Part shown: piece by piece, positions 23,732 to 38,211 of the stretch
Layout: each line of letters begins with the position of its first letter
How positions within the stretch are numbered: position 1 is the stretch's first letter
Assembly (NCBI GenBank): GCA_050486405.1
Contig: JBJHDF010000004.1
Location: 118,316 to 182,315, forward strand
Reading direction: 5' to 3'
Origin: Marinimicrobium sp.
Lineage (GTDB): Bacteria; Pseudomonadota; Gammaproteobacteria; Pseudomonadales; Cellvibrionaceae
Length of the DNA stretch: 64,000 nt
Notes under the pieces: generated by a model
Databases searched by the model: none
What the model saw: only the letters and a program-made list of their open reading frames with translations
Told to the model about the DNA's origin: nothing
Program-made: the position numbers and the translations under genes

Positions 23732-23808
23732 GGCAAGGTAGCTCAGCCGGTTAGAGCACAGCACTCATAATGCTGGGGTCGGCGGTTCAAGTCCGCCCCT
23801 TGCTACCA
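23732..23808 (+). tRNA. tRNA-Met, elongator type (anticodon CAT)
   Basis: 77-nt cloverleaf. D-arm AGCTCAGCCGGTTAGAGCA, anticodon loop CTCATAA, T-arm GGCGGTTCAAGTCCGCC, ACCA end. Position 1-72 would be a G-U pair. A CAT anticodon could formally also be Ile2. Confidence 0.85.
23760..23808 (+). repeat. attL (3' 49 nt of the intact tRNA-Met)
   Basis: agcactcataatgctggggtcggcggttcaagtccgccccttgctacca, identical to 29694-29742. Confidence 0.9.
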
Positions 23809-23854
23809 CTATCCAAGGGATTAGCGGGTTAATACTCGCTAACCTCTTCCCTCC

Positions 23855-23897
23855 AGGTAAGCATATGGTAAGCATGGCGCACCGAAAAAGGTAAGCA
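23855..23897 (+). repeat. Arm-type repeat cluster (GGTAAGCA x3) at the left end of the island
   Basis: The 23-mer aggtaagcatatggtaagcatgg (23855-23877) is identical to 29547-29569. One extra aggtaagca copy at 23889-23897. Confidence 0.7.
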
Positions 23898-23919
23898 GTG
23901 CTGCCTGATTGCCAGGCAC

Positions 23920-23942
23920 AAAAAACCCGGCACATGGCCGGG
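23920..23942 (-). terminator. Rho-independent terminator ending the island's leftward operon
   Basis: On the minus strand cccggc-catgt-gccggg followed by TTTTTT, 25 nt after the stop of CDS 23967..24539. Confidence 0.7.
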
Positions 23943-23966
23943 CATTGTCGAGCGGTAAAATCCGGG

Positions 23967-24539
23967 TTATTCGGGCCGGTCAATGCTCGCGGTCGCAATG
24001 TTTGAGTAGCAGCCTGACACCAAAGTCGCCCGGGCAGTCGCCTTCCGCAAATCTGCCAGCAGGGTTGCTGTTTGAGGCGAATGGAGTTGGCCAAAGCCAT
24101 CGGGCCGGTCAGCACCTTTCCCCAGCGTCTGAAATGCCCGATAGGTGACAGCTTCTGACTCGGTGACGGCTGCCGCCAGTATCTCGGCTTCCGCCAGCAC
24201 CTTTGGAACTAGCTTTTCCAACTCAGCCGCTGCGGCCACCGCTTGCTTTCTGGAGGCTTCCCACTCAGGGCGCAGCAGCTCTACAGCCGCCTGTGCTTCC
24301 CTCTGCCGGGCTTCCGGCAACAACCGGCTCAGGGCTTGGCGTTCAGCCTCCAGACGGCGGTGGTGGCGTTCAGCGTCCAACTGGGCAGCCTCCAGGCCAT
24401 CAACGTCGGCACCGCCGGCCATTGCCCCAGCCATCTCGCCAACAAGGTCGCGGCTTTTGAATGCCCGTAGCTCGCCGTCCAGTTCGCTCAGTCGGGCCTG
24501 AATCTGTGCTGCGGATCGTTCTTGAATAGCTGCGTTCAT
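23967..24539 (-). CDS. Island protein, unknown function (Ala/Glu-rich, predicted coiled coil)
   Basis: 190-aa ORF, last gene of the leftward operon. Heptad-like charged sequence (ERHHRRLEAERQALSRLLPEARQREAQAAVELL). No recognisable catalytic motif. Confidence 0.55.
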   Translation of the reverse strand: MNAAIQERSAAQIQARLSELDGELRAFKSRDLVGEMAGAMAGGADVDGLEAAQLDAERHHRRLEAERQALSRLLPEARQREAQAAVELLRPEWEASRKQAVAAAAELEKLVPKVLAEAEILAAAVTESEAVTYRAFQTLGKGADRPDGFGQLHSPQTATLLADLRKATARATLVSGCYSNIATASIDRPE

Positions 24540-24550
24540 GTGTTGCCCCC

Positions 24551-24829
24551 TTAGTCAAAGTCCGGCAGTTCGTCGGACAGCTCGCCATCCGTCATGGTGC
24601 GGGCATTGGCCGCCATTCCGGCCAGGTTGAGTTGCTCACGCTGCTGGTCGTGCTCTGCGGCCCGCTGCTTTTCGCGCTGGGCTTCGGCTTCGGTGCGCTT
24701 CTTTTCGGCGGTTTCCAGTGCGTCCAGGCGCTCGACGAAAGGCGCTAGAGACGCAGAAACTACGCGAACAACGTCATCAGCGTTTAACGCAAGCGTGGAG
24801 CTTGCGACGGAAAAGGTTTGTTTGGTCAT
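24551..24829 (-). CDS. Island protein, unknown function (charged helix, acidic C-terminus)
   Basis: 92-aa ORF, 11 nt upstream of the next gene. KKRTEAEAQREKQRAAEHDQQREQ helix and DGELSDELPDFD tail. Confidence 0.5.
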   Translation of the reverse strand: MTKQTFSVASSTLALNADDVVRVVSASLAPFVERLDALETAEKKRTEAEAQREKQRAAEHDQQREQLNLAGMAANARTMTDGELSDELPDFD

Positions 24830-24862
24830 GGGGATATTTCCTGTTTGAAAAGTGTGGGCCTG

Positions 24863-25069
24863 TCAGGGGTTCTTTATCGGCAAGGTGACTTTGGCGCTTG
24901 CCAAGGATTCGATGGTGGCCGGGATATATTGGCCGGTGGGGGTGCGCTCCAACAATTCACCCGGGGTGCCGTCAGCCTCGACCACTTGCCGGAAGAGTAT
25001 TAGGGGCGCTTCGGGCAGCTTGCGGGCCTCAAGGTCTGCAATACGGCGGCGCAGGGCTTCAGTGTTCAT
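24863..25069 (-). CDS. Island protein, unknown function
   Basis: 68-aa ORF in the operon array, preceded by an SD-like GGAG. No motif recognised. Confidence 0.45.
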   Translation of the reverse strand: MNTEALRRRIADLEARKLPEAPLILFRQVVEADGTPGELLERTPTGQYIPATIESLASAKVTLPIKNP

Positions 25070-25084
25070 ACGGTAAGCTCCGGG

Positions 25085-25390
25085 TCATTCTCTGAGTAAT
25101 CGCTCGTAGTCGGCTGCCGCCTGCTCAACGGTCAAGCCCGGCGGAACTTCAACTTCTTCCGACAGGAGTTGGACGTACTGCTGGACGCGATAGTCAGTAA
25201 GCGCCTTCAATGCCGGTGTTTCGATGCGCGCAATGTAGGACGGGCCAAGCTCTCCGGGCACCAGGTCGGGCGCGGGCTGGCCCAGTTCAATCAGTGCCGC
25301 CCGAATGCGGGCCGGTGATTCGGGGTCAGTAGTTTGCTTTTTCTGCTCAGCCTCAAGAGACGACAGGCGACGACGTAGTGAGTCAATCAT
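25085..25390 (-). CDS. Island protein, unknown function
   Basis: 101-aa ORF. Its ATG overlaps the stop of the DUF5681-like gene (ATGA-type 4-nt overlap at 25387-25390). Confidence 0.5.
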   Translation of the reverse strand: MIDSLRRRLSSLEAEQKKQTTDPESPARIRAALIELGQPAPDLVPGELGPSYIARIETPALKALTDYRVQQYVQLLSEEVEVPPGLTVEQAAADYERLLRE

Positions 25391-25818
25391 GCGGCGGCCC
25401 TCGTGCCCGATGATTGTTCGAGCGCTTCAATGCGGCGGGTCAGTTCGTCAACCTCGGATATGCGCGCAACCTGCCCTAACGCGCCAACAAGTTGTGCCAC
25501 GGAATCAGAAGGTGCTTTTCCCTCAGCGGCTGCGTCAATCAGACGGCGGGATACGCAAGCCAAACCTTCCGCGCCGGTCAAGTCAATATCCAGTGCCACC
25601 GGTTGCGGTTTTAACGGTGGTGCAATGCGGTCAAGACAAATCCGCAGCGCTGCCACGTCGCCAGCCAAGGCCAACTCGACGGCTTTTTCCACAAGCTCGG
25701 CTCCGTGGCGGGAAAGCTGTTTGCGAAGCTCGGCGGACGCACTGCGGGGCCTGCCGTTTGGGTTGCCGCTCACACCTTGCGGGAAGCGGCCTTTTGCGTC
25801 TCGGGTTTTGTCGGTCAT
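25387..25818 (-). CDS. DUF5681-like phage-associated protein (GNPNGRP motif)
   Basis: 143 aa from ATG 25818. N-terminal GRFPQGVSGNPNGRPRSA motif, as I recall it for DUF5681 proteins of phages and satellites. Helical C-terminus. Confidence 0.6.
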   Translation of the reverse strand: MTDKTRDAKGRFPQGVSGNPNGRPRSASAELRKQLSRHGAELVEKAVELALAGDVAALRICLDRIAPPLKPQPVALDIDLTGAEGLACVSRRLIDAAAEGKAPSDSVAQLVGALGQVARISEVDELTRRIEALEQSSGTRAAA

Positions 25819-25860
25819 GCTCCTGTTCCTCACCTGCCTAACAGGTATGTATGCACGTCC

Positions 25861-25889
25861 AGTATAGCACCTGTTTTGCGTACTCTCAA
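25861..25889 (-). promoter_or_regulatory. Strong sigma70-type promoter for the DUF5681-to-190aa module, bracketed by an inverted repeat
   Basis: On the minus strand TTGAGA (25884-25889), 17-nt spacer, TATACT (25861-25866). A 7-bp inverted repeat aacaggt (25840-25846) / acctgtt (25869-25875) spans the -10 and the predicted start site. Confidence 0.55.
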
Positions 25890-25908
25890 CTTTGCCAAAG
25901 TGTGGCCG

Positions 25909-27021
25909 CTATCTGTTTGCACTGTGGTCTGTTCGTGCGTCAGGCAAAGTCCACCAGTAGCGGCTAGCCACCTTGCCGGAACCTTTGCGCTCCAGTTTCA
26001 AAACATCGTCTAGCACCAGCGCGGAGAGTATCTTAGCGGCATCGGTGAAATGCACGTTCACCAGCTCGCCAGCTTGCCGCGCACTAATGAAAAACGGATC
26101 ATCACCATGGTGCTCTGCCAGCCTGCGGCAAACTTTCGCCAATAGAATCGATTGGGGGCCGTACCCCAGGCCATCCACCCCTTGCGGAATGGGGTCGCCC
26201 TCCACCCCGTCAAGAACCCTCGCCATTGTTTCGCCGTGCGGAAACTTAACCTTGTCCCAGCCGCGCAAAAAGTCCCCCCAAGTGACACCGAAGTCTTTTG
26301 TCCCAATAACCGGAAATGCGAGGCTGTGCCATTCCTGAACGATGCTCCGAAGCTCTGCCTTCGTCGCGTTGGGTCTGGTACCCTTTAGGTAACGGGCCAG
26401 CTCGAATAAGCACTTGTTCCGTTGCCCTTCGGATTCAGGCAGAAACTCACCTACAGAAGAGCACGGAAGATTACTGAAGATGACCTCTGTCATCCTCTGT
26501 CCTCCTCTGTTCTCTTCTGTTCTCTTCTGTAGGTCTCGGGACAGGGCCGCAACTCCACACAATGGGGCGAGCGGGCCATTGTCTATCACGTCACCCGTGT
26601 ATGTTATGTACCTCTGGGCGCGGTAAATCTCAATATTCAGTCCCAGATAGCGGCCCTTTTTCCGGGCCAGTTCGTCATTACAGTATCCCCACCCGTGAAG
26701 ACCGCATCCCGAAGGGCTGCGCTCAATGAATCGACAGTTCAGTTCGCGCAGCATGGCCACCGCCTCAGTGCTGGTGCTGTAGTCAATGTCGATGCAGGCC
26801 AGCCCATCCTCGGCAACCAGAACAAAGCCTACTCCGTGGTCGCGAGGCGAGGTAAAGCTATTTCGCGCCTCCTCAAAGCTGCTCCACGTTTTCGGGTTTG
26901 TGCTGGAGGCCGTTATTCGGGGGCTGCTTGCTTGGTAGGGAACCTTTTTCCCTCGCCACAATACCCACCTATGGAGACGCGCTAGTTCCTCGGGGGCGCG
27001 GTCAAAGTCCGGTTTTACCAT
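25909..27021 (-). CDS. Prim-pol type DNA primase/polymerase (replication initiator) with C-terminal wHTH-like domain
   Basis: 370 aa. GVGFVL..DGLACIDIDY (DxD) and SPSGCGLHGWGY motifs typical of bifunctional prim-pol N-terminal domains. No helicase P-loop seen. Confidence 0.75.
   Translation of the reverse strand: MVKPDFDRAPEELARLHRWVLWRGKKVPYQASSPRITASSTNPKTWSSFEEARNSFTSPRDHGVGFVLVAEDGLACIDIDYSTSTEAVAMLRELNCRFIERSPSGCGLHGWGYCNDELARKKGRYLGLNIEIYRAQRYITYTGDVIDNGPLAPLCGVAALSRDLQKRTEENRGGQRMTEVIFSNLPCSSVGEFLPESEGQRNKCLFELARYLKGTRPNATKAELRSIVQEWHSLAFPVIGTKDFGVTWGDFLRGWDKVKFPHGETMARVLDGVEGDPIPQGVDGLGYGPQSILLAKVCRRLAEHHGDDPFFISARQAGELVNVHFTDAAKILSALVLDDVLKLERKGSGKVASRYWWTLPDARTDHSANR
26481..26530. 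repeat. Five tandem 10-bp units (iteron-like) inside the prim-pol gene
   Basis: tgacctctgt / catcctctgt / cctcctctgt / tctcttctgt / tctcttctgt. Exact 10-bp phasing, located in the linker between the two prim-pol domains. Confidence 0.6.
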
Positions 27022-27024
27022 CGG

Positions 27025-27351
27025 TCACACCCCCAATGCGCGTTCCAGCTTGCGGCGGTCACGGGCGCTGGCGTGATATTTTCCGTACCAGCTTGGCCTG
27101 CCGTCTATCGTGACAAACGGAACACGCTCGCAGTACAGCACAACGTTCAACTTGCGGCGCAGGCCCATGACCACATCCGGGGCATTGCTGGCCGGCGCTA
27201 TCCGGTCGGCGCGTTCTCGGGTAACCGGGCCACGCAACAACGCACGGGCAAGGCGGATCTGTCGCTTGCTCAGTACCGGCGTGTTAGAATTCGGGGATCG
27301 AGTTTTTCTTTCTTGGGCCGTCCGTGCGGGGCGGCTTTTTTTTGTTTTCAT
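27025..27351 (-). CDS. Small basic DNA-binding (winged-helix-like) protein
   Basis: 108 aa. Lys/Arg-rich N-terminus, then SKRQIRLARALLRGPVTRERADRIAPASNAPDVVMGLRRK (helix-turn-helix pattern). Overlaps the alpA-like stop by 4 nt. Confidence 0.55.
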   Translation of the reverse strand: MKTKKSRPARTAQERKTRSPNSNTPVLSKRQIRLARALLRGPVTRERADRIAPASNAPDVVMGLRRKLNVVLYCERVPFVTIDGRPSWYGKYHASARDRRKLERALGV

Positions 27352-27575
27352 GCGGCAGTCCCCCGTTCACTTGCGCTGGCCATCGGCTCAGAAAGCCGAC
27401 TCTCTGCCCATGACAGCAAGTCGCCGGGAGTGTAGAGCGACCGGCTTCCAAACTTTCGATAGGTGGGGCCGCCGCCGATGCAGGCCAGCTTCGCCAAAGT
27501 GCCATTGGTGGCCGGGTAGCCGTGCTCGGCTAGGTATGCTGCCGCCTCTCGGCGACTTAGGTAGGTCTCGGTCAT
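27348..27575 (-). CDS. AlpA/excisionase-family (MerR-like HTH_17) DNA-binding protein
   Basis: 75 aa. YLSRREAAAYLAEHGYPATNGTLAKLACIGGGPTYRKFG matches the AlpA/Xis HTH pattern found next to P4-type integrases. Confidence 0.7.
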   Translation of the reverse strand: MTETYLSRREAAAYLAEHGYPATNGTLAKLACIGGGPTYRKFGSRSLYTPGDLLSWAESRLSEPMASASERGTAA

Positions 27576-27647
27576 GCGATTTTCTCCGAAGAAAAGGGAA
27601 ATTAACCAACGGAGAAAATGGTAAATAGGGTTTGACTCCTAGCCGGG

Positions 27648-28238
27648 CTAGCGCCCTTTTTTCCTCGCCTCTCTCAATCTTGTACGGAACCGACTTAATG
27701 TTATATGCCCTTCCTTTCCAGTCTCGTCCTCCGTGTAATGGACCTGCGACTCTCCGGCTTTGGTCTGGCACTCCCTCGGTTCCATCATTGCGGCGTCCAG
27801 CGCACCCCAAAACAGCTCCCAAAGCTCGCCCGGTTTGTGCTCAGTCATCGCTAGGCGGTTGATAATGTCCTCAACATTCTGAATACCGCGCGGCTTCTGC
27901 GCCTTTATGCGCTGCTCAGTGGAATAGTTAAATGCACCCATCTGGTTTGTCGCTATGGCGGCAGCCTCAAGGTCTTGGTAAATTTGCAGCATCAAAATCT
28001 TGAGTTTCTGTGTCAGGCCCTTATTGCAAAAATATCGCGCATCGCCAATGCGGCGGTACGTCTCCTTGAACTCCTCCTGCAAATCCTCGGGCAGCTCACG
28101 GTTAAGCGACTCCTCCCATTCGTCCAGCTTTGCCATGGGGTCGGGCGGCAGCACCGTTTGCTTTGCTTCGGCCTTACGCACAGCGGCCTTTTTTGCCTCA
28201 AGGTATAGAAATTCGGCCATTGCTTTGGGGTCATCCAC
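27648..28238 (-). CDS. Island protein, unknown function, translationally coupled to the integrase
   Basis: 196 aa. Its start overlaps the integrase stop by 8 nt. Locally lower GC than the rest of the island. No recognisable motif. Confidence 0.55.
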   Translation of the reverse strand: MDDPKAMAEFLYLEAKKAAVRKAEAKQTVLPPDPMAKLDEWEESLNRELPEDLQEEFKETYRRIGDARYFCNKGLTQKLKILMLQIYQDLEAAAIATNQMGAFNYSTEQRIKAQKPRGIQNVEDIINRLAMTEHKPGELWELFWGALDAAMMEPRECQTKAGESQVHYTEDETGKEGHITLSRFRTRLREARKKGR

Positions 28239-29529
28239 GGTTCACGCCCTCCTTGCGAAGGTCCACGACCTCGCCAGCCTCCCGTCCTTCAAGTGCCGCA
28301 GCAATGCCGGATGTGTGGCGCTCGATGACCGCCGCCCGGTCTTGGTCGCCGAAGTGCAGATAACGCTTTGTAGTGCTCAATTGGGTATGGCCCAACGTCT
28401 CGGCAATCTGTGCCGCCTGAGCACCCTGCACCGCCATCAGTGAGCCTATGCTGTGGCGTAAACCATGAAGACCTATGCCCTCCGGTAAACCAGCTTCCTG
28501 CCGCACAAGCCGCCACGGCTTCGACAATGCCAGCGGCACCCCGTTGCCCTTGGCCGACTCGAAGACCAGGCTGTCAGGGCTTCCCTGGGGCTGTCTGGCA
28601 ACGACTGCCTGAGCCGCGCTGGGGAGGTTGATTGTCTTTGCCTTGCCGCTCTTGTGACCGGTCTTGTGCGCCTTCGCTGGCAGCTCAATCAAGCCGCGCC
28701 TGAGGTCTACCCACCGCCAGCGCAAACCCGTAATCTCGCCACGGCGGCAGCCGGTGAGCGCCAGAACCCGGATGGCATCGGCCACGGGTCGCCGAATCCG
28801 GCGCTGTTCTTCGAGCGCTTCCAGGGTGCGAAACAGCCGGGGGTAATCTTCCGGCCTTAGAATCTGCTCGCGCTCGCCGTCACTGCCAAAGCTCAGCCCC
28901 GCCGCCGGGTTATTTGGAATCAGCTTTTCCGATTCTCCCCAAGCGAATATCGCCCGCAGTACCCGGCAGGCCATCCGTGCTGCACCTTCACCGCCGCGAA
29001 CAATGGCCCGACCACGCGGCCCGGTACGCTCGTCGGTCGCCGTCTTTCCAGTGGCGATTGCCTTGCGAGCGCGTAGCACATCTTCCGCCGTCAGGCTTTC
29101 GACAATCTGGTGACCAAGCAGCGGGCGTATGTGCCGGTCAAGGCGGCCCCGGTCTGTCTTGCGTGTGGTTTCAGCCTTGGCCGCGAATTTCTCCGAGGCC
29201 AGATACTCGTCCAGCAAGTCGTTGACGGTCAGCGCTTCGCGGCGCTTCCGGCGCTCGGCCTGAGGGTCTTTGCCCGCCCTCACCTCAGCGGCCAAATTCT
29301 TGGCCAGTTGCCGGGCCTCGTCTAAGGTAAGCATTTTTGCCGATTTTCCGAGTGTGTAGCGGCGGGTTTTGTTGTGCTGATTCCGGTACTGGAAAACGAA
29401 GGTTTTTGTTCCCGCTGGATAGACGGCTACGCCAAGACCAGCAACGGCGCGGCTTCCCTCGTCCCATATGAAATACTTGGCGGCTTTTGGCTCCAGATTT
29501 CTGATAAGGTTCTTTGTCAGTTTTGGCAT
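28231..29529 (-). CDS. int: Tyrosine recombinase, P4-type integrase (DUF4102 N-terminal arm-binding domain)
   Basis: 432 aa from ATG 29529 (MPKLTKNLIRNLEPKAAKYFIWDE...FVFQYR). Catalytic region has TGCRRGE, HGLRHS and a C-terminal LGHTQLSTTKRYLH (R..HxxR..Y). Confidence 0.9.
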   Translation of the reverse strand: MPKLTKNLIRNLEPKAAKYFIWDEGSRAVAGLGVAVYPAGTKTFVFQYRNQHNKTRRYTLGKSAKMLTLDEARQLAKNLAAEVRAGKDPQAERRKRREALTVNDLLDEYLASEKFAAKAETTRKTDRGRLDRHIRPLLGHQIVESLTAEDVLRARKAIATGKTATDERTGPRGRAIVRGGEGAARMACRVLRAIFAWGESEKLIPNNPAAGLSFGSDGEREQILRPEDYPRLFRTLEALEEQRRIRRPVADAIRVLALTGCRRGEITGLRWRWVDLRRGLIELPAKAHKTGHKSGKAKTINLPSAAQAVVARQPQGSPDSLVFESAKGNGVPLALSKPWRLVRQEAGLPEGIGLHGLRHSIGSLMAVQGAQAAQIAETLGHTQLSTTKRYLHFGDQDRAAVIERHTSGIAAALEGREAGEVVDLRKEGVNRG

Positions 29530-29546
29530 TGCAAACACCTGATTTT

Positions 29547-29677
29547 AGGTAAGCATATGGTAAGCATGGAAGCGCCAAAACCGGGTAATTTCCGGTTTGA
29601 CCTCAGCACTGATAGTAAACCTTATCTATATGAAAATAAAGGGAAAAGTATAGAATAGTCGATTTAGGTAAGCATGG
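29547..29677 (+). repeat. Arm-type repeat cluster (GGTAAGCA x3) at the right end of the island, with an AT-rich spacer
   Basis: The 23-mer at 29547-29569 is identical to 23855-23877. Further aggtaagcatgg copy at 29666-29677. An AT-rich tract at 29610-29660 lies between them (possible bending-protein site). Confidence 0.7.
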
Positions 29678-29693
29678 GAAAAGGGGTTGTTCA

Positions 29694-29742
29694 AGCACTC
29701 ATAATGCTGGGGTCGGCGGTTCAAGTCCGCCCCTTGCTACCA
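29694..29742 (+). repeat. attR (duplicated 3' 49 nt of tRNA-Met)
   Basis: Identical to 23760-23808. It lacks the 5' half of the tRNA, so it is not a gene. Confidence 0.9.
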
Positions 29743-30380
29743 TACTCTGCGGGGTTGTCGGGTCCAGGCCCGGCGACCCCGATCTCCAGCCAACGCAGAT
29801 CCTCCGGGCGGTCGATATCCCGCAGTGGTTCTCCCTGATACAGCCGCCAGCCCAGGGCCGCGATGCGTGCCAGGGTGATCCGCGCCACTTGGGGGCCGCC
29901 CCAGGGAATGTCGCGGAAGAGACGCTCATCCGTGCGGGTCAGGCCCAGCAGGGCGTAGCCGCCGTCGACGGCCGGGTAGAGCGCCACCTCGACGCCCTCC
30001 AGCGCCCGGGCAGCCCGGCGCAGCAGGTCGGCGGACATCTCCACGCAATCCGTGCCCACCAGCAGCACCCGGGGCGACTCCACCAACGCCCGGCGGGCGG
30101 CGCGGGCCATGCGCTGGCCCAGATCCCCCGGACCCTGGTCGCTCACGATCAGACTTGGCGGCAGGGACACCCCTCCCCAGGCTTCGCTGCCCGGCGCGGG
30201 GGTGGCGCAGAGTTCCACCGGCCCCAGATCGGCCTGCAGCGCCGCATCCAGGGTGCGCTGCAACAGGCGGGCGGCCAGAGCCGCTGCACCTGTTTCGCCC
30301 AGGGCCGGCACCAGGCGGGTTTTGGCCAGGCCCGGCAGTGGCGCCTTGGCAAAGACAATAACCCGCGTCGACTCTGTCAC
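29721..30380 (-). CDS. DUF2064 / TIGR04282-like nucleotidyltransferase-fold protein
   Basis: 219 aa if GTG 30380 is used (GTGA overlap with the upstream GT2 stop): VTESTRVIVFAKAPLPGLAKTRL.... The last 22 nt run into attR. Confidence 0.7.
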   Translation of the reverse strand: MTESTRVIVFAKAPLPGLAKTRLVPALGETGAAALAARLLQRTLDAALQADLGPVELCATPAPGSEAWGGVSLPPSLIVSDQGPGDLGQRMARAARRALVESPRVLLVGTDCVEMSADLLRRAARALEGVEVALYPAVDGGYALLGLTRTDERLFRDIPWGGPQVARITLARIAALGWRLYQGEPLRDIDRPEDLRWLEIGVAGPGPDNPAEYGSKGRT

Positions 30381-31078
30381 TGTTCGTACCTGCGCGCCAG
30401 CGCCGCCGGATCGGTCCCGCGCCAGTAGGCCAGACGCAGACGCCACATCAGCAGTATGGTGCGCCAGGTGCCGCGCCGGTCCCACCGGCGACCAGAGGTG
30501 GTAATGCGCTGACGCAGGCACAGGGGGCGGGACAGACGCTTCAGGCGCCTGCTGATTTCGATATCCTCCATCAATGGCTGGTCGGGAAAGCCACCCACCT
30601 GCCGGAAGGCCTCGCAGGTCATAAACAAGCCCTGATCGCCGGTGGCGATTCCGGTCAGGCAGGAGCGCCGGTTCATCAGCCAGGCGGTGGGCTTGAGCCA
30701 GAAGGAACGGCCGTCGATGCGCACATCAAAGCGCCCCCAGACCCGCTTGCCCCCGGCCAGGCCGTCCCCGATCGCCGCCGGGGCCGCTTCCGGCAGCCGG
30801 CTGTCGGCGTGCAGAAACAGCAAAACCTCACCCCGGGCACGGCTGGCGCCGGCATTCATCTGCCGCGCCCGTCCCACCGGTGCGTCTATCACGGTATAGC
30901 CGGCCTCGCGTGCCAGCTCGGCGCTGCGGTCGTCACTGCCGCCGTCCACCAGTATCACCTCCACAGTGGGACTGCTTTGCAGAGGCGACAGGTGTGCCAA
31001 CAGCCCCGGCAGTTGTGCTGCCTCGTTGCGCATGGGCACAACGATGGAGAGGCGGATTTGGCTCGGGGCCTCCGGCAT
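30377..31078 (-). CDS. Family-2 glycosyltransferase, TIGR04283-like
   Basis: 233 aa. LSIVVPMRNE, ILVDGGSDD and FLHADSRL motifs of GT2. Confidence 0.75.
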   Translation of the reverse strand: MPEAPSQIRLSIVVPMRNEAAQLPGLLAHLSPLQSSPTVEVILVDGGSDDRSAELAREAGYTVIDAPVGRARQMNAGASRARGEVLLFLHADSRLPEAAPAAIGDGLAGGKRVWGRFDVRIDGRSFWLKPTAWLMNRRSCLTGIATGDQGLFMTCEAFRQVGGFPDQPLMEDIEISRRLKRLSRPLCLRQRITTSGRRWDRRGTWRTILLMWRLRLAYWRGTDPAALARRYEQ

Positions 31079-31082
31079 GGGC

Positions 31083-33275
31083 TTACTCCTGCCCGCGACC
31101 GGACCCGCCCCGGCGCCAGCGATGGTAGCGCTCTACCCAGCGCAGCAGCGCTTGCGGAGCCTGGGCTTTTTTCCATTCCCCGGCGGCGTACTTGTTGGCC
31201 TCCGCCATTGTCGGGTAGGCGTGGATGGTGCCGAGTATCTTGTTCAGCCCCAGACCGTAACGCATGGCGAGCACAAATTCCGCCAGCAGATCGCCGGCCC
31301 CGACGCCAACGATGGTCACCCCCAGAATCCGGTCCTTACCCGGCGGGGTGAGCACTTTGACAAAGCCCTCGGTGGTGCTGTCGGCGATGGCGCGGTCCAG
31401 ATCGCGCAGTTCGAAGCGCGTCACTTCAAAGGCGACACCCTGTTCCCGGGCCTCGCTTTCGTTGAGGCCCACCCGGGCGATCTCCGGGTCGATAAAGGTG
31501 GTGCGCGGAATCACCGAGCAGTCCACCCGAAAACGTTTGAACTGGCCAAACAGCGCGTTTACCGATGCGTACCAGGCCATATGGGCGGCGGTGTGAGTGA
31601 ACTGGTAGGGGCCGGCCACATCACCCACGGCGTAAATATTGGGGTAGAGAGTTTCCAGATAGTCGTTGGTGACGATCGTGCGCTCGGTGGCAATGCCCAG
31701 TTCCTCCAACCCGTAGCCGCTCAGGCGCGGCTGCCGGCCGACGGCGCACAGCAGCGCATCAAACCCGACCCGGGCTTCGGCACCGCTGCCGTCCTGTCCG
31801 GGCGCTTCCAGCACCAGTTGTTTACTCTGCCCCTGCTGCTCACAGCGCAGGGGCCGGTGACCCAGCAGCAATTCGACACCGTCCGCCGCCAGGCTGCGCG
31901 CCGCCAGTTCCGACACCTCGTCGTCTTCCCGGGCGAGCAATCGATCAGCCATCTCCACCAGCGTGACGCGGGAACCGAGCCGGGCAAAACACTGGGCCAG
32001 TTCGCAGCCGATGGGGCCGCCGCCGAGCACCAGCAGCCGCTCCGGTGGCGCGTCCAGTTTGGCGAACTCATCCCAGAGGGTATCACTGGTCACGTAACCC
32101 ACCTGTTCCAATCCTGGCAGCGGCGGCACCACCGGTTGAGCACCGGTAGCAATCACAATACTGCGTGCAGTCAGGCGCCGACTGTCGCCATCGTTCAGCG
32201 CCACCTCCACCGTCCAGGGATCAACCAGGCGAGCGTACCCCTGCAGTACTTCCACCCCCAGCCCCGTATAGCGCTCAACACTATCGTGGGGCTCAACCTC
32301 GGCGATCACGCGTTTTACCCGGGCCATCACCTCCCGGAAGCTGAACCGGGGTGGTTGCGCGCGCAGACCGTAGCGCTCGGCGTAAGCCATCTGATGCGCC
32401 ACCCTGGCACTTTTGATCAGTGCCTTGCTGGGCACGCAGCCATAGTTGAGACAGTCGCCGCCCATTTTGTGGCTTTCGATCAGCGTGACCCGGGCTTTTA
32501 CCGTGGCGGCAATATAGGCCGACACCAGTCCCCCGGCACCGGCGCCAATGACGATCATATTGCGGTCGAACGTTTTCGGGCGCCGCCATTTTTTATAAAC
32601 CCGACGACGCTGCACCAGACGCACAAGACCCCGGGCCACCCAGGGGAAAATGCCGAGCAGGACAAACGAAAGAATCAGCGTCGGTGACAGTATGCCGGAC
32701 ACGCTTTCCAGCGAGGCCAGTTGAGTACCGGCATTGATGTACACCGCCGTACCGGCCAGCATGCCCACCTGGCTGACCCAATAGAAGGTCCAGGTTTTGA
32801 TGGGTGTCAAACCCATCACCAGATTGATGACAAAAAACGGAAAGGCCGGCACCAGGCGCAGGGTGAACAGGTAGAAAGCGCCGTCGCGCTCAATACCGGC
32901 GTTGATCGCTTTCAGCCGGTCGGCAAAGCGGCCTTGCACCGTATCGCGCAACAGAAAGCGCGCCACCAGAAACGCCAGGGTGGCGCCGATACTGGACGCA
33001 AAAGACACCAGCAGCACGCCCTGCCAGAAACCGAACAGCGCGCCCGCCGCCAGGGTCATGATGGTGGCGCCCGGCAGCGACAGGGCGGTAACGGCGATGT
33101 AAAAGGCAAGAAACGCCAGTGGAATCAGTAAGGGGTAGGCCGCCAACCACTGGGAAAACCTATGTTGACTCGCCTGCAGACTTTCCAGCGTCAGATACTG
33201 ATTCAGATCAAGCGCGAAAAAGAGCAACACAGCAGCAGCGAGCGCGACCAGCAGTAACCATTTTTTCATTGTCAT
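31083..33275 (-). CDS. Fusion protein: DedA/TVP38-type membrane domain plus FAD-dependent pyridine-nucleotide-disulfide oxidoreductase (mercuric/dihydrolipoamide reductase-like)
   Basis: 730 aa. N-terminal about 230 aa with SNARE-associated/DedA-type helices. Then GAGAGG FAD loop, redox-active GGDCLNYGCVPSK, NAD loop GGGPIGCE and a C-terminal dimerisation HAYPT motif. Confidence 0.8.
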   Translation of the reverse strand: MTMKKWLLLVALAAAVLLFFALDLNQYLTLESLQASQHRFSQWLAAYPLLIPLAFLAFYIAVTALSLPGATIMTLAAGALFGFWQGVLLVSFASSIGATLAFLVARFLLRDTVQGRFADRLKAINAGIERDGAFYLFTLRLVPAFPFFVINLVMGLTPIKTWTFYWVSQVGMLAGTAVYINAGTQLASLESVSGILSPTLILSFVLLGIFPWVARGLVRLVQRRRVYKKWRRPKTFDRNMIVIGAGAGGLVSAYIAATVKARVTLIESHKMGGDCLNYGCVPSKALIKSARVAHQMAYAERYGLRAQPPRFSFREVMARVKRVIAEVEPHDSVERYTGLGVEVLQGYARLVDPWTVEVALNDGDSRRLTARSIVIATGAQPVVPPLPGLEQVGYVTSDTLWDEFAKLDAPPERLLVLGGGPIGCELAQCFARLGSRVTLVEMADRLLAREDDEVSELAARSLAADGVELLLGHRPLRCEQQGQSKQLVLEAPGQDGSGAEARVGFDALLCAVGRQPRLSGYGLEELGIATERTIVTNDYLETLYPNIYAVGDVAGPYQFTHTAAHMAWYASVNALFGQFKRFRVDCSVIPRTTFIDPEIARVGLNESEAREQGVAFEVTRFELRDLDRAIADSTTEGFVKVLTPPGKDRILGVTIVGVGAGDLLAEFVLAMRYGLGLNKILGTIHAYPTMAEANKYAAGEWKKAQAPQALLRWVERYHRWRRGGSGRGQE

Positions 33276-33481: not shown

Positions 33482-34726
33482 ATGAACCAGCGCGAAGCCA
33501 AACACAACGTCAACCCCGACAAAGGCTACATCGCCCTGTTGGGCTGGTCCCTGAACGCCGTGGAGGCCGCCGACCGTTTTGATCGGCGCTATATCGTGGT
33601 GGCCCCGGACTGGGCTGAGGAATACTGCCAGAAGCACGACATCCCCTACCTGCCGTGGAACTTCGAGCGCCTCAATGATCGCTCCATGGAGATTGCCGAG
33701 ACGCTGAAGGACATGGGCGTAGATGTGGCCATTCCCCTGTTCGAGGAAACCGTGGAGTGGGCCGGCGCCATCAACTCCGTGCTGCTCGACAACCCACGCC
33801 TGTTTGGTCAGGCGCTGTTGCTGCGCGATAAATCCCTGATGAAACGCCGCGCGCAACTGGGCGGCATTCGCGTGGGCATTTTCGAAGAGGCGCACGACAA
33901 GGAAGACGTGGTGCGTTTTCTCAAGCGCGTCAACCAGACGCTGCTGAAACTCGACGGTGACCCCAATGACCCCATTCATCTCAAGGCCTTTGACAAAGCC
34001 GGCTGTCTGGGCCACCGGGTGATCCGCACACCCGACGAAGTGGATACCATTCCCGACGAGGAATTTCCGGTGTTGATGGAATCTCACCTGGACGGCTGGG
34101 AGTTTGCCGTCGAGGCCTGGATTCACAACGGCAAGATCTGTTTTCTCAACATATCCGAATATGTCACTCTCGGCTACTCGGTGTTTGTCCCCGCCTCACC
34201 GGAGCTGGAAAAATACCGGCCAAAAATCCGCGAACAGATCGAAAAGCTGATCAAGACTTTCGATATTGATTTCGGCTTTGTGCACCCCGAGTATTTCGTC
34301 ACCAGTGACGGCGAAATGTACTTTGGCGAAGTCGCCTATCGGCCGCCGGGCTTCAAGGTGTTTGAACTGCTGGAGCGCGCCTACGGCTTCAACGCCTATC
34401 AGGCGTTGATACTGTCCTTTGACCCCAAAACCACAGAAGAGGAAATCAATAACTTCTTCCCCCGGGAAGTGGTCGACGCCAGAGGACACGCCGGCTGCTT
34501 CGGTGTCTACCCACGCCGCCGCGTGGTCAGCCGACTGGAAATTCCGGAGGAAACGGAAAGCCACGAGTACTTTGAATCCCACGAGCTGACACCGCCCGTG
34601 GAGGAAACCGTCACCAAGCGCACCGCCTTTGGCACCCACTGGGGCCTGGTGTATTTCTTCGGCGACGACCCGCACGAGATTCGCGATCTGCTCAAGCGTC
34701 AGGAAGAGCTGGATTTCTATGTATAA
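33482..34726 (+). CDS. ATP-grasp fold ligase, substrate unknown
   Basis: 414 aa from ATG 33482 (AGGAGG 7 nt upstream). ATP-grasp-like strands VLMESHLDGWEFAVEAWIHNGKI and HPEYFVTSDGEMYFGEVAYRPPG. Confidence 0.7.
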   Translation: MNQREAKHNVNPDKGYIALLGWSLNAVEAADRFDRRYIVVAPDWAEEYCQKHDIPYLPWNFERLNDRSMEIAETLKDMGVDVAIPLFEETVEWAGAINSVLLDNPRLFGQALLLRDKSLMKRRAQLGGIRVGIFEEAHDKEDVVRFLKRVNQTLLKLDGDPNDPIHLKAFDKAGCLGHRVIRTPDEVDTIPDEEFPVLMESHLDGWEFAVEAWIHNGKICFLNISEYVTLGYSVFVPASPELEKYRPKIREQIEKLIKTFDIDFGFVHPEYFVTSDGEMYFGEVAYRPPGFKVFELLERAYGFNAYQALILSFDPKTTEEEINNFFPREVVDARGHAGCFGVYPRRRVVSRLEIPEETESHEYFESHELTPPVEETVTKRTAFGTHWGLVYFFGDDPHEIRDLLKRQEELDFYV

Positions 34727-34786
34727 TGGAACAGAGTTCCATTGATTCGGGCCACAGGCCCCGCAACCGCCTGACAGGGGGAGCGC

Positions 34787-36811
34787 TTGCAATCCGATCC
34801 GGATAACGGCACAGAGCAGCAGCGGACACTGGACAACCTGGCCCACCGACTCGACGATGCCGTGGCCGCGCTGGCACAGACCCGCGACTTCGCCAAGGTC
34901 ACCAAAATACGACGGGTGTTTGACAGTGCGCGGCGCCTGCTGCTGCACGAAGGTGGCTGCGCCGCGCTCGAAACGCGGGCCCAGGCGCTTGAGGAGGCCG
35001 GCGTCTTTTACGGCACCGATTGGGCGCAGCCGCAAATCCTGCTGCCGCGCCTGAGCAAGGGCGCGCTGACCAGCGCCGATGCGGACACCGTAGTAATTGA
35101 AGCCATCAGTCAGCTGCGCCTGTTGGCCGTGGCGCTGGGCAACTACCGCCATCCATCAGTGTCCAGTGAGCAGGCCCACCATTTTCTCACCCAGGTCCTT
35201 GCCATCAATCTCAGCCTGCTGTTCAACCCGCCCGGCGAAGCCGAGCGCCAGCGTCAGGGCCGGCTGGCCCTGGTGCCACAACAACTGTTGCGGCATCTGG
35301 CCGAACGCATCGGCTACGAATATGTGATCGATCAGTTGATTGGGGAGATCTGGCGCATTCTGCAGCAGCGCCCCATACAGGTGGACAGCGTCAAGCAGAT
35401 GATCACCCAGATCGCCGTCTGCCAACTCAACCCGGATATCGATCTGGGCGCCAGTGGCAAGGGCGCCGACCGCCTGATCAGCAGCCTCTACGGCACCACC
35501 CGGGCCTGTCGCGAAGACCCGGGCATAGACGTGTATCAGGAGCGTCTGAACGCCATGGACAGCGGCGCCCTGCAATACGAGGCCACCGGTTTTGCCCGGG
35601 CCATGCACGACACCGGGCTGGTATCGCCCTACCACGCGGTATTGCTGCGCCACCTGCTCGACCGGGGCGAACACCTGCTGTCCGAGGCGCTGGGGCTATC
35701 CAGCACCGGGCGCGATTGCCTGCTGTGCTACGGTGGACTGGTGCAGGCGCTAATCCGCGAAGCGGTGCACCCGGCCACCGCCCAGGCCGTATACGGCCTG
35801 GCGCTGCTGCTGGAAAGGGGCATCCTCTACCATCCAGCCGTGGCGCCGGCACTGTGGCGGCAACTGGCGCTGCCGCTGTCGGAACAGTCGCAGCAGCGCA
35901 TTCGCCTGTCCTTCGGCGACAGCCTGCCGGCCAGCGTCTGGCTGTTGCAGGGCGTGCTGTGCATGCTCGGCCAACCACTGGGTGTCGGCCAGGGCAACAA
36001 CCCCACCTGCCAGTCCGCCCGGGCCCTGTCCATGTGGGCCTACAACGACCCGGATTACCTGTTGCAGATGGTGGTCTGGGCCGCCCGGGACAACGAGATC
36101 ATTATTCATTTCGAAGGCCAGGCCCTGTCGTCCCGGGACAGCATCGGCGGCGTGGCCGCCGAACTGCCCATGGATCTGGACCCGGTATCTCTGCTGGTAG
36201 TGCCGCATCTGGATCGCATCTATGCGGAAATGGGCCGGCGCTGCGCCGGTCGCGAGGGCGACCCCCATCGCTGGATCAACCCCGAATTCCACGGCTGGTG
36301 GTCCGGTCGCGGCTTTCGCATCAACGTTGACGTCAGCAGCGGCCAACTGACCGAACTGGATGATTTTCTGCGCCACTTCTACGCCAGTTACCACCCCTAT
36401 TACAACGGCAACCAGCCGCTGATCCACCCCCAGCCGGCCGGCATCGCCATCACCGACAGCGCCGCGCGCTTTGTCGGCTGGCACGCCATTACCATACTGC
36501 GCGTGATGCTCGATCCAAAGGAGCAGATGCGGGTGTATTTCTACAACCCCAATAACGACAGTGGCCAGAACTGGGGCGATGGCGTGGAAGTCAGCACCGC
36601 CGGCAGCGGCGAGCGTTTTGGCGAAGCGTCACTGCCGTTCGAGCAGTTTGCCTCGCGCCTGTACATCTTTCATTACGACCCGCTGGAGCGCGGCGAACTG
36701 GCCAACATCAGCGACGATGAACTGCAGCGGGTCAAGGGGTTGATCTATCGCAGTTGGGGCGCCGACCGCGTACCGGCCAGCGAACTGCAGGCCACTGTGG
36801 GTCCGCAATAG
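34787..36811 (+). CDS. Large uncharacterised protein: about 390-aa helical N-terminal region plus C-terminal papain-like (clan CA-type) cysteine peptidase/amidase-like domain
   Basis: 674 aa, TTG start after GGGGGAG. Has Q402-x5-C408 (GQGNNPTCQS, tgc at 36008-36010), H566 (GWHAITILRV) and N587-P (YFYNPNND), spaced like Gln/Cys/His/Asn(Asp) of papain/C39-type folds. Confidence 0.6.
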   Translation: MQSDPDNGTEQQRTLDNLAHRLDDAVAALAQTRDFAKVTKIRRVFDSARRLLLHEGGCAALETRAQALEEAGVFYGTDWAQPQILLPRLSKGALTSADADTVVIEAISQLRLLAVALGNYRHPSVSSEQAHHFLTQVLAINLSLLFNPPGEAERQRQGRLALVPQQLLRHLAERIGYEYVIDQLIGEIWRILQQRPIQVDSVKQMITQIAVCQLNPDIDLGASGKGADRLISSLYGTTRACREDPGIDVYQERLNAMDSGALQYEATGFARAMHDTGLVSPYHAVLLRHLLDRGEHLLSEALGLSSTGRDCLLCYGGLVQALIREAVHPATAQAVYGLALLLERGILYHPAVAPALWRQLALPLSEQSQQRIRLSFGDSLPASVWLLQGVLCMLGQPLGVGQGNNPTCQSARALSMWAYNDPDYLLQMVVWAARDNEIIIHFEGQALSSRDSIGGVAAELPMDLDPVSLLVVPHLDRIYAEMGRRCAGREGDPHRWINPEFHGWWSGRGFRINVDVSSGQLTELDDFLRHFYASYHPYYNGNQPLIHPQPAGIAITDSAARFVGWHAITILRVMLDPKEQMRVYFYNPNNDSGQNWGDGVEVSTAGSGERFGEASLPFEQFASRLYIFHYDPLERGELANISDDELQRVKGLIYRSWGADRVPASELQATVGPQ

Positions 36812-36814
36812 GCG

Positions 36815-37771
36815 TCAATCGTTCAAGGCCCCGCCACAACTGCTGCCCTGACCGGCAGTGCAACCGTAGCAGTGATCCGCCACACAGATTTCCTCACCGT
36901 TCATATCCTGCTGCAACAGGTTTCGCAAATGGCGTCTTTTCCCGCCGGCGGGCAGCTGCAGCATCTGATTGAAATCGCAGTCGTAGAGGTAGCCCTGCCA
37001 GTCGACACTCACCAGAGTGCGGCACATGACGCCGTCGAGATTGTGCGGGGAATAATTGTCCTTGAGCAGTTGCATATAGTCGGCAAACTGGTTTTTGGAG
37101 ATCAACATACTGCCAAAGCGCTGGATCGGCATATTGGCGAGGGTAAACAATTCGTTGAACACAATACCGAAGTGGCTGTGCAGCTCGCGCTTGTAGTCGG
37201 ACTCCAGCGCTTTCTGTTCCGGTGGCAGTGTGGGGCCCAGTGGATTGTAAACCAGATTCAGCACCAGGCCGCTGCCGGGCCGGCCATAACCCAGGGCGTT
37301 GAGTTTTTGCAGCGCAGCGATGCTTTTGTCGAACACGCCGTTGCCGCGCTGTTTGTCGACGTTGGCCGGGGAATAGCAGGGCATGGAAGCCACCACTTCC
37401 ACCCGGTGCCGCGCCAGAAACTCCGCCGTGCCCTCGTAGCCCGGCTCCAGCAGAATGGTCAGGTTGCAGCGATCCATGACCCTGACCCCCATAGCGCTGC
37501 AGGTTTCCACCAGCTCGCGGAACTGGCCGTGCATTTCCGGCGCGCCGCCGGTGAGATCCAGGGTGGCGATGTTGCGCGCCTCCAGCACCCGGGGAATCAG
37601 CGCCACATTGTCCGGGGTCATCATTTCCTTGCGCGTGGGACCGGCGTTGACATGACAGTGGACGCAGGTCTGGTTGCAGAGGTAGCCGAGATTGACCTGC
37701 AACGTATCCAGGGGCTTGCGGCGCAACACGGGAAAGTCCGTGGCTTCCAGCAATGGCAGGGTAGCGTGCAT
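36815..37771 (-). CDS. Radical SAM / Cys-rich-domain protein, ArsS-like (TIGR04167-type)
   Basis: 318 aa from ATG 37771. CNQTCVHC radical-SAM cluster motif and C-terminal HCYGCTAGQGSSCGG. Confidence 0.8.
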   Translation of the reverse strand: MHATLPLLEATDFPVLRRKPLDTLQVNLGYLCNQTCVHCHVNAGPTRKEMMTPDNVALIPRVLEARNIATLDLTGGAPEMHGQFRELVETCSAMGVRVMDRCNLTILLEPGYEGTAEFLARHRVEVVASMPCYSPANVDKQRGNGVFDKSIAALQKLNALGYGRPGSGLVLNLVYNPLGPTLPPEQKALESDYKRELHSHFGIVFNELFTLANMPIQRFGSMLISKNQFADYMQLLKDNYSPHNLDGVMCRTLVSVDWQGYLYDCDFNQMLQLPAGGKRRHLRNLLQQDMNGEEICVADHCYGCTAGQGSSCGGALND

Positions 37772-37904
37772 GAGGCGGCTCCTGTTTTTCAGTTTACGAG
37801 CAGGGGTTACAGGCAGAGGCTGTAGACAGGGGATTCTGCTACAATATCTGTCGCAACTCACACCGCATTCTTGCACCCCGAAACAAAACTGTCGAGGCCA
37901 TCTC

Positions 37905-37958
37905 CCTGAAACCTAAAGTCCTGAAACCTAAAGTCCTGAAACCTGAAGTCCTGAAACC
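37905..37958 (+). repeat. 15-bp tandem repeat, 3.6 copies, in the 5' end of the glutaredoxin reading frame
   Basis: cctgaaacctaaagt x2, cctgaaacctgaagt, cctgaaacc. In frame it encodes LKPKV-LKPKV-LKPEV-LKP. Confidence 0.9.
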
Positions 37959-38211
37959 CGTTACCCTGTACAGCTCCCAAAACTGTTCCTATTGTGTCGC
38001 CGCCAAGACTCTATTGCACCGCAAGGGCGTAACCGCGCTGCAGGAAATCGCCGTGGACCGGGAGCCGTCCCGGCGCGAGGAGATGGTGCGCCGCAGCGGG
38101 CGACGCACCGTGCCGCAGATTTTTATCGGCGAACACCATGTGGGCGGCTTCACCGACCTGCTGGCGCTGGAGCGGCAGGGCCAACTGGATGCCCTGCTCG
38201 CGCAATCGTAA
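37906..38211 (+). CDS. Glutaredoxin (Grx3-like, CSYC active site); start codon unresolved
   Basis: VTLYSSQNCSYCVAAKTLL...RRTVPQIFIGEHHVGGFTDL is a clear Grx fold. There is no in-frame ATG/GTG/TTG between the upstream stop (37771-37773) and the CSYC codons. CTG 37906 sits 8 nt after GAGG, and I use it only provisionally. Confidence 0.55.
   Translation: MKPKVLKPKVLKPEVLKPVTLYSSQNCSYCVAAKTLLHRKGVTALQEIAVDREPSRREEMVRRSGRRTVPQIFIGEHHVGGFTDLLALERQGQLDALLAQS

Follow-up and report, generated by a model that had tools for sequence, protein, structure and literature searches.

A conserved gene pair encoding a divergent ATP-grasp ligase and a calpain-like large protein in Marinimicrobium: a possible self-contained module for an amino-acid conjugate

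What do two adjacent genes of Marinimicrobium sp., which no curated family matches as a pair, do for their host, and do they work with the redox-related genes around them? The genes lie at positions 33482-34726 and 34787-36811, both on the + strand, of the 64,000-nucleotide (nt) stretch of contig JBJHDF010000004.1 analyzed here (henceforth the window). The first encodes a 414-amino-acid (aa) protein related to ATP-grasp ligases and the second a 674-aa protein with a predicted cysteine-peptidase domain. An earlier note on this DNA had compared them to the two activities of glutathionylspermidine synthetase/amidase (GspSA) and had suggested that they make and hydrolyze an amide-linked conjugate, possibly a low-molecular-weight thiol derivative. 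The reading that we favor, with moderate confidence, is that they form a self-contained ligase/amidase module that makes and cleaves a small conjugate of amino acids, perhaps a dipeptide of the osmolyte type, and has no relation to the flanking ArsS/DedA genes.

Are the two genes one unit? Their open reading frame (ORF) coordinates agree with the description of two co-directional genes 60 nt apart. An AGGAGG motif precedes the ATG of the ATP-grasp gene at 33482 (the mechanical ORF opens earlier, at TTG 33437), and reading of the 60-nt spacer (34727-34786, + strand) reveals a Shine-Dalgarno-like GGGGGAG just before the TTG start of the large-protein gene at 34787. The two genes probably share one transcript. 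The only terminator-like site between 33200 and 37000 falls within the ATP-grasp gene (34637-34651), and an Rfam scan upstream of the pair found no riboswitch or other RNA element. The median distance between the aligned parts of the two proteins across 150 loci is ~76 nt; the real spacer is at most this long, since alignments often miss the large protein's variable N-terminus.

What kind of enzyme could the large protein be? A full-length AlphaFold2 (AF2) model based on 46 diverse homologues (mbabc3581ffa1; predicted local distance difference test (pLDDT) 91.5, predicted TM-score (pTM) 0.88) divides it into two parts. Residues 1-395 (34787-35971, + strand) consist only of helices, about 20 of them, in agreement with the long helical N-terminal region noticed earlier, and residues 396-674 (35972-36811, + strand) are alpha+beta. 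We modeled the C-terminal domain by itself (m7f98db724ba3; pLDDT 86.8, pTM 0.85) and searched it against the PDB using Foldseek. The first 26 matches were all calpain protease cores (6bjd, 3df0, 7w7o, 6p3q, and 1tl9 among them), the best with probability 0.94-0.99, E-values of 1.7e-3 to 1e-2 and TM-scores of 0.36-0.43 over 270-310 columns; lower in the ranking came papain, bromelain, staphopain and cathepsin B. With the full-length model the Foldseek matches were weak (E ≥ 0.19) and headed by papain-family peptidases, and with aa 1-395 they comprised nothing beyond ARM/HEAT-type noise.

The residues expected of such a domain are in place. Translation verified Q402 (codon 35990-35992), C408 (36008-36010), H566 (36482-36484) and N587 (36545-36547), the last followed by a proline, at the positions reported earlier. 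Q402 and C408, the predicted oxyanion-hole glutamine and nucleophile, bound the motif GQGNNPTCQ (35990-36010, + strand), and the stretch 36482-36547 (+ strand) runs from H566, the predicted general base within GWHAITILRV, to N587-P588 within RVYFYNPNN, where N587 is the predicted orienting asparagine. When their conservation was checked in 39-46 homologues, down to 29-35% identity, Q402, C408 and P588 were invariant and H566 and N587 were ≥90% conserved, which exceeds chance. In the full-length model helix 408-420 begins with C408, strand 562-575 contains H566, and strand 581-586 is immediately followed by N587. A nucleophilic cysteine at the start of a helix is a feature of papain and calpain, and the H566 and N587 motifs resemble the GHAYS...RNPWG of calpain. 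Fold match and motif conservation together support assignment of the modeled C-terminal domain to clan CA, with a calpain-like papain fold, as the earlier note had proposed from residue spacing.

Sequence searches did not recover this relationship. Calpain family C2 (PF00648/Peptidase_C2) had no Pfam match at E ≤ 5 in the window protein or in the 46 homologues, and phmmer and profile searches of PDB sequences returned no calpain, only a spurious repeat-like match to designed pentatricopeptide repeat (PPR) proteins. The large protein has no Pfam or NCBIfam match of any kind, nothing significant was found in a Pfam scan of the 46 homologues, and neither protein of the pair matches the PADLOC anti-phage defence models. 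Family members of odd length contain no informative domain fusions. Conservation in the family extends to many residues besides the catalytic ones, and within the N-terminal domain a set of polar residues is invariant or nearly so (W79, E105, R111, E187, Q194-R195-P196, E265, T276-G277, and H283). On the models, the large protein is predicted to be a cytoplasmic, calpain-fold protein with a novel conserved helical domain of 395 aa, and its active site, as modeled and conserved, leads us to predict thiol-dependent amide hydrolysis or transfer.

What would its partner make? The ATP-grasp strands reported in the first gene correspond to a signal that is real and weak: Pfam ATP-grasp_4 (PF13535) matches the window protein at E 2e-5 with 24.7 bits, below the cut-off of 27, and PDB entry 4wd3 matches at E 2e-4. 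PF13535 is precomputed on many close and distant homologues, which are named ‘carboxylate--amine ligase’. In NCBIfam there is only a weak match to a ‘hypothetical’ subfamily, and no NCBIfam family applies. The closest PDB relatives, all weak, are the L-amino-acid ligases 4wd3 and 3vot, PurK (3orq) and a PurD-like enzyme, with E-values for L-amino-acid ligases and PurK/PurT-type enzymes ranging from 2e-4 to 4e-2. The stretch H268-P-E270...G-E283-V-A-Y-R287 aligns with the ...EIAMR/...EIAPR stretch of 4wd3 and 3orq, and E270 and E283-V-A-Y-R287 are invariant in 16 sequences. We take this E-x-A-x-R stretch (E270, E283-R287) to be the Mg/ATP-site motif of ATP-grasp enzymes. Approximately 270 of the 414 columns are invariant in these 16 sequences from three phyla. 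The first product is thus classed, from its sequence, as a divergent ATP-grasp carboxylate-amine ligase, presumably of the small-molecule type (L-amino-acid-ligase/PurK-like) because of its length of ~410 aa and its nearest, weak, relatives. The protein ends in ...LDFYV in the seven of seven copies compared, in ...LDFY[VI] in the 16 sequences and in ...VDFYL in a divergent homologue. The GC content of its gene is below that of the partner gene in every genome compared (0.57 vs 0.64 in the window).

Do the two genes belong together beyond this genome? The large-protein family comprises >2,700 clusters at 90% identity and 277 representatives at 50% identity, with full-length members of ~610-745 aa and no detectable relatives outside the family. 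There are at least 585 loci among species-representative genomes. We compared neighborhoods in two sets, one of 93 loci from isolate genomes and genome-resolved metagenome-assembled genomes (MAGs) and one of 83 metagenome loci from a divergent clade. An ATP-grasp gene was directly upstream on the same strand at 89 of the 93 loci, and upstream at 78 of the 83 divergent-clade loci, where three of the five exceptions are contig ends. The two genes suspected to co-occur are therefore co-inherited as an adjacent pair across phyla. At some loci they are tightly coupled, with a 4-nt overlap (L010 and L173). The four exceptions in the first set, from two Vreelandella, a Guyparkeria MAG and Marinobacter lacisalsi (L054, L064, L085 and L091), have no full-length ATP-grasp gene upstream. 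ATP-grasp remnants in three of them (L054, L064 and L085) are short, and L091 has none; the large-protein ORF is uninterrupted without a full ATP-grasp gene at L064 (676 aa) and L085 (684 aa). Plasmid carriage of the pair was considered and rejected, since it had a single match, on a 1.8-Mb Halomonas replicon.

Among the hosts of the clade to which the window belongs are Halomonadaceae, Marinobacter, Marinimicrobium, Ectothiorhodospiraceae, Haliea, Guyparkeria, Methylophaga and Methylotuvimicrobium, together with the actinobacterial genera Nocardia, Mycobacterium, Rhodococcus and Streptomyces. The divergent clade is found mostly in marine or saline Cytophagales (Bacteroidota), plus high-GC soda-lake contigs and one Firmicute. 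Judging by host names and sample types, most hosts are halophilic, marine or from soda lakes. On Ureibacillus-type contigs (L012/L013, 3709-7827) the pair precedes a second, smaller paralogue of the large protein (608 aa, no C-terminal tail), with a major facilitator superfamily (MFS) transporter downstream and a GNAT gene divergent upstream. One member of the short-paralogue group (P0307) has lost the catalytic histidine.

In an alternative that we regard as doubtful, the large protein would be not a hydrolase but a transacylase or transpeptidase like CtaG, BtrH, AdmF or phytochelatin synthase, passing the ligase product via Cys408 to an amine and so giving an oligomer, polymer or conjugate. 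The precedent is that pairs of ATP-grasp enzymes and papain-like transacylases build the amide backbones of closthioamide and butirosin (PMC7183216), and the conserved full catalytic set, the tight translational coupling at the two overlapping loci and the MFS transporter near one Firmicute locus are all consistent with it. However, the known cases require a carrier protein and further partners, none of which is conserved beside the pair, and polymer-related or export genes are not consistently linked to it. CtaG/BtrH-type enzymes are also small, with the cysteine near the N-terminus (PMC7183216), whereas the fold here is calpain-like.

How old is the association, and what constrains it? We compared the window proteins pairwise with those of four gammaproteobacterial genera, Streptomyces and Mycobacterium. 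The ligases are 83-91% identical and the large proteins 65-84% identical. Four-fold degenerate sites are only 32-61% identical, so that synonymous sites are saturated, and GC content at third codon positions (GC3) tracks each host (0.56-0.86 for the ligase gene and 0.62-0.93 for the large-protein gene). Recent horizontal transfer as the source of the high identity is ruled out by these two observations, which argue instead for long-standing purifying selection on the ligase. Identities to the window proteins fall into two groups, ligases of 82-91% with large proteins of 68-80%, and ligases of 43-55% with large proteins of 32-40%. The divergence of the two partners is correlated (r = 0.99 overall; 0.64 for the divergent clade alone and 0.25 for the window's clade alone), the overall value being so high because it mostly reflects the two-group split. 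Neither this extreme conservation nor the alanine-racemase and arginine-pathway association described below had been anticipated by the earlier note.

Conservation of this kind bears on the main rival explanation, reversible modification of a protein. The ATP-grasp enzyme would attach amino acids, singly or several at once, to the C-terminus or a side chain of a conserved protein, the calpain-like enzyme would remove or trim them, and the helical domain would grip the target. RimK adds amino acids to S6 and tubulin-tyrosine ligase (TTL) adds them to tubulin, and the pair of TTL and vasohibin, in which an ATP-grasp ligase and a cysteine peptidase add and remove an amino acid, is a eukaryotic precedent for such a cycle, vasohibin having a transglutaminase-like fold. 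A calpain-like fold joined to a 395-aa helical, solenoid-like domain fits this explanation. So does the extreme purifying selection on the ligase (82-91% identity across phyla despite saturated synonymous sites), which would suit a macromolecular partner, and so does the lack of conserved metabolic neighbors in the window's clade. Yet in size and in its weak best matches the ligase resembles small-molecule ATP-grasps (Lal, PurK, PurD-like) and neither RimK nor TTL; the genes beside the pair include no candidate for the target and no small ORF that is conserved; and the racemase and arg-operon context indicates free amino acids. We consider protein modification unlikely on balance, though it is the strongest of the rivals. 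A specific form of it, a bacterial counterpart of the tubulin tyrosination cycle in which an amino acid, possibly D-Ala, is ligated to a conserved protein and removed by the calpain-like enzyme, seems to us rather improbable. If it held, the 82-91% identity of the ligase would follow from the need to fit a conserved macromolecule, and both proteins would found new families of protein-modifying enzymes.

Do the genes around the pair indicate its role? In the window, the pair interrupts a set of genes, all on the − strand and identified by Pfam and NCBIfam matches: TIGR04282/DUF2064 (29721-30521), a TIGR04283 glycosyltransferase (30377-31078), and a fusion of DedA/VTT with a pyridine-nucleotide disulfide oxidoreductase (31083-33275) on one side, and an ArsS radical SAM gene (36815-37876) on the other. 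These are the genes that the earlier note had listed; the glutaredoxin that it placed next to the pair is a glutaredoxin-like ORF (~37924-38211, + strand; CSYC site and TVPQIFI...GG) that lies past ArsS and is not adjacent. We searched 8 kb around the 93 other loci. ArsS and TIGR04282 were found at none of the 93, and the DedA-reductase fusion and the TIGR04283 glycosyltransferase at one of the 93 each. Neighborhoods vary from genus to genus among those examined.

These counts decide against the thiol-based explanation, in which the conjugate made and hydrolyzed by the pair contains a low-molecular-weight thiol and the flanking genes for ArsS, the DedA-disulfide reductase and glutaredoxin take part. 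Its attractions are the position of the pair between the reductase fusion and ArsS, the glutaredoxin-like ORF nearby and the analogy to GspSA. However, the cluster is essentially missing at the other loci, which rejects a functional link of the pair to the ArsS/DedA-reductase genes; the neighborhoods differ in each genus examined, and no CHAP or GSP_synth domain was detected in the pair. Because the ArsS-type cluster is almost never near the pair elsewhere, the neighborhood in the window is incidental, and nothing indicates a low-molecular-weight thiol. The survey thus largely refutes the thiol-conjugate explanation, which we now regard as extremely improbable, and gives no support to the thiol/redox flavor noticed earlier or to a link of the pair with ArsS-like clusters.

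Within the window's clade there is no conserved third gene. The most recurrent neighbors, a TlyA-like methyltransferase and an MscK-like channel, occur at no more than 32 of 89 loci and were judged to be shared synteny among related Halomonadaceae. A search for precursor peptides and other small ORFs (15-90 aa), reaching 420 nt upstream and 350 nt downstream of the pair, turned up none shared between lineages; the clusters of small ORFs near it are frames of the neighboring alr gene or are lineage-specific.

Clues to the substrates come from the divergent clade. At 61 loci a gene of the alanine-racemase family (PF01168 + PF00842) overlaps or directly follows the large-protein gene. In three or four high-GC loci the racemase is instead divergently upstream, in a second, independent arrangement. 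Arginine-pathway genes also recur within 8 kb of divergent-clade loci: argD at 21, argB and argC at 17 each, argJ at 12 and argG at 6, on contigs with a GC content of 0.39 to 0.69 and including tight operons of the order argC-argB-argD-GNAT-argJ-GNAT-ATPgrasp-large protein. At one arg-linked locus (L010, 8205-11683), two large ORFs without NCBIfam match (590 and 568 aa) come after the pair, and a reverse-transcriptase gene comes after them.

The order ligase-peptidase-racemase at the 61 Bacteroidota-type loci mirrors vanC-vanXY-vanT and raises the possibility of VanC-type remodeling of cell-wall precursors, in which the ligase would make D-Ala-D-X, the peptidase would destroy the normal dipeptide and the racemase would supply the D-amino acid. 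The racemase does score on VanT serine-racemase models, at 231-245 bits, but the cut-off is 460, whereas it passes the alanine racemase model TIGR00492 with 285 bits (cut-off 168). The ligase falls outside the Ddl family and the peptidase outside M15. A vanRS-like regulator is lacking, the module of the window's clade has no racemase, and its hosts, which are Gram-negative halophiles and actinomycetes, have no known glycopeptide link. We judge this explanation to be very unlikely.

How, then, could a small-molecule module work? In our preferred reading, the ligase would couple the carboxylate of an amino acid to an amine at the expense of ATP, and the product would be a dipeptide-like conjugate. 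The cysteine enzyme would act on the same amide bond via an acyl-enzyme on Cys408, either hydrolyzing it for turnover and recycling or transferring the acyl group. Alanine (D-Ala) and the ornithine/arginine branch, or else some related diamino acid, would be the probable sources of the substrates, as suggested by the racemase and arg neighbors in the divergent clade. The product might be compatible-solute-like or a nitrogen-rich small peptide; both are suggested by the marine, saline and soda-lake hosts together with the precedent of the N-acetylglutaminylglutamine amide (NAGGN) operon described below.

Several points weigh against this reading. The combination of a calpain-type domain with a large helical one is seen more typically in proteases that act on proteins than in amidases that act on small molecules, and 82-91% ligase identity between Gammaproteobacteria and Actinobacteria is far above the usual need of a simple metabolic enzyme. 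The racemase and arg associations are confined to the divergent clade, with none in the window's clade, and may partly be shared synteny within Bacteroidota. No transporter or regulator is consistently linked to the pair. At the exceptional loci the large protein may persist without its ATP-grasp partner, or the partner may be encoded elsewhere. Finally, the Nocardia, Mycobacterium and Rhodococcus hosts are not halophiles. The level of ligase conservation is not fully accounted for by any explanation offered here.

Two further features of the window lie outside the pair. The glutaredoxin-like ORF, taken as 37907-38211, has no ATG, GTG or TTG ahead of its active site, the first canonical start (38014) coming after the CxxC. 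Ahead of it lie ~3.5 copies of a 15-nt tandem repeat (cctgaaacctaaagt), which in translation would read as KPKVL repeats. Possible causes of this oddity are an unusual start codon, an N-terminus that varies through its repeats or an error in the sequence. The second feature is a stretch of ~5.9 kb between the tRNA-Met gene at 23732-23808 and a perfect 49-nt repeat of that gene's 3' half (~29694-29742), the repeat being scored as a tRNA by ARAGORN and not by Rfam. The stretch contains a P4-type tyrosine integrase (28231-29538) and ORFs without Pfam matches, and 23732-29742 looks like an integrated island with att repeats. A functional link of the pair to this island was rejected, as the island stops at ~29.7 kb, before the TIGR04282 gene, and the pair is outside it.

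Why does the pair matter? The module is widespread, occurring in several phyla and in hundreds of mostly salt-loving bacteria, and both of its proteins are annotated only as ‘hypothetical’ or generic ‘ATP-grasp’, with no Pfam or NCBIfam family for the large one. Hosts include the biotechnological chassis Halomonas and Methylotuvimicrobium and the actinomycetes Nocardia and Mycobacterium, and the host range hints at a missing piece of amino-acid-derived osmolyte or nitrogen metabolism. The predicted chemistry, in which amide formation would depend on ATP and amide cleavage or transfer on a thiol, lends itself to direct testing. That the ligase is nearly invariant while its synonymous sites are saturated is out of the ordinary for a bacterial enzyme and a puzzle of its own, and the large-protein family would add a well-conserved bacterial branch to the calpain-like peptidases. 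As the earlier note had supposed, no system of this architecture appears to have been described: no curated family matches the pair, and a published description was not found in the literature searched, which did not extend to the 2009 amidoligase survey of Iyer et al. An earlier computational mention of the pair may exist.

How does the pair compare with known systems? The calpain core (MEROPS C2, clan CA) is the best structural match of the C-terminal domain, with a Foldseek probability of up to 0.99, and shares a glutamine six residues before a nucleophilic cysteine at a helix N-terminus, a histidine on a beta-strand and an Asn-Pro after the next strand. Sequence identity is only 9-14%, however, the TM-score is only ~0.4, and Peptidase_C2 is not matched at E ≤ 5. 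The large protein lacks the C2-like and penta-EF-hand domains and has the conserved 395-aa helical domain in their place, its cysteine is followed by glutamine and not by tryptophan, and it is encoded beside a ligase. The ligase resembles the L-amino-acid ligases (4wd3 and BL00235, 3vot) and PurK/PurT-type enzymes in its length of ~410 aa and in the alignment of the central and C-terminal ATP-grasp parts, including E-x-A-x-R, but differs in scoring only E 2e-4 to 4e-2 against them and below the Pfam gathering score. GspSA, as predicted for the pair, combines an ATP-dependent amide synthetase with a cysteine-nucleophile amidase of the papain-like superfamily acting on the same bond. Unlike the pair, it joins a CHAP and a GSP_synth domain in a single polypeptide; Pfam and NCBIfam scans of the pair found neither domain, and the pair has no conserved thiol context. 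The comparison made in the earlier note thus holds as an analogy of activities only and not as family membership, because neither domain was detected. TTL/vasohibin is likewise a combination of an ATP-grasp ligase and a cysteine peptidase.

The NAGGN operon (asnO-ngg-PA3461) encodes a peptide-forming enzyme with a peptidase, is required at high osmolarity and is also found in seawater and saline-soil strains (PMC8070244). Its PA3460/Ngg, an annotated GNAT-family acetyltransferase, N-acetylates one glutamine and forms the peptide bond (PMC8070244). The pair would share with this operon the arrangement of a non-ribosomal dipeptide-forming enzyme encoded with a peptidase, but the window pair has no AsnO-type amidotransferase and no separate or fused GNAT, and the NAGGN peptidase is annotated as a glutamyl aminopeptidase, not a cysteine enzyme. 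In closthioamide and butirosin biosynthesis (CtaD/CtaG and BtrH), the same two superfamilies cooperate in amide-bond chemistry (PMC7183216). Those systems are thiotemplated on carrier proteins within larger clusters, whereas the pair consists of two genes without a carrier and its cysteine enzyme is calpain-like, not BtrH-like. Nothing places the pair among the graspetides or other RiPPs (peptides made by the ribosome and modified after translation), as no conserved precursor-peptide gene is adjacent. By analogy, the pair would work like GspSA, the NAGGN operon or TTL/vasohibin, but it is a member of none of them, because their defining domains were looked for and not found; its two proteins are new families inside known superfamilies.

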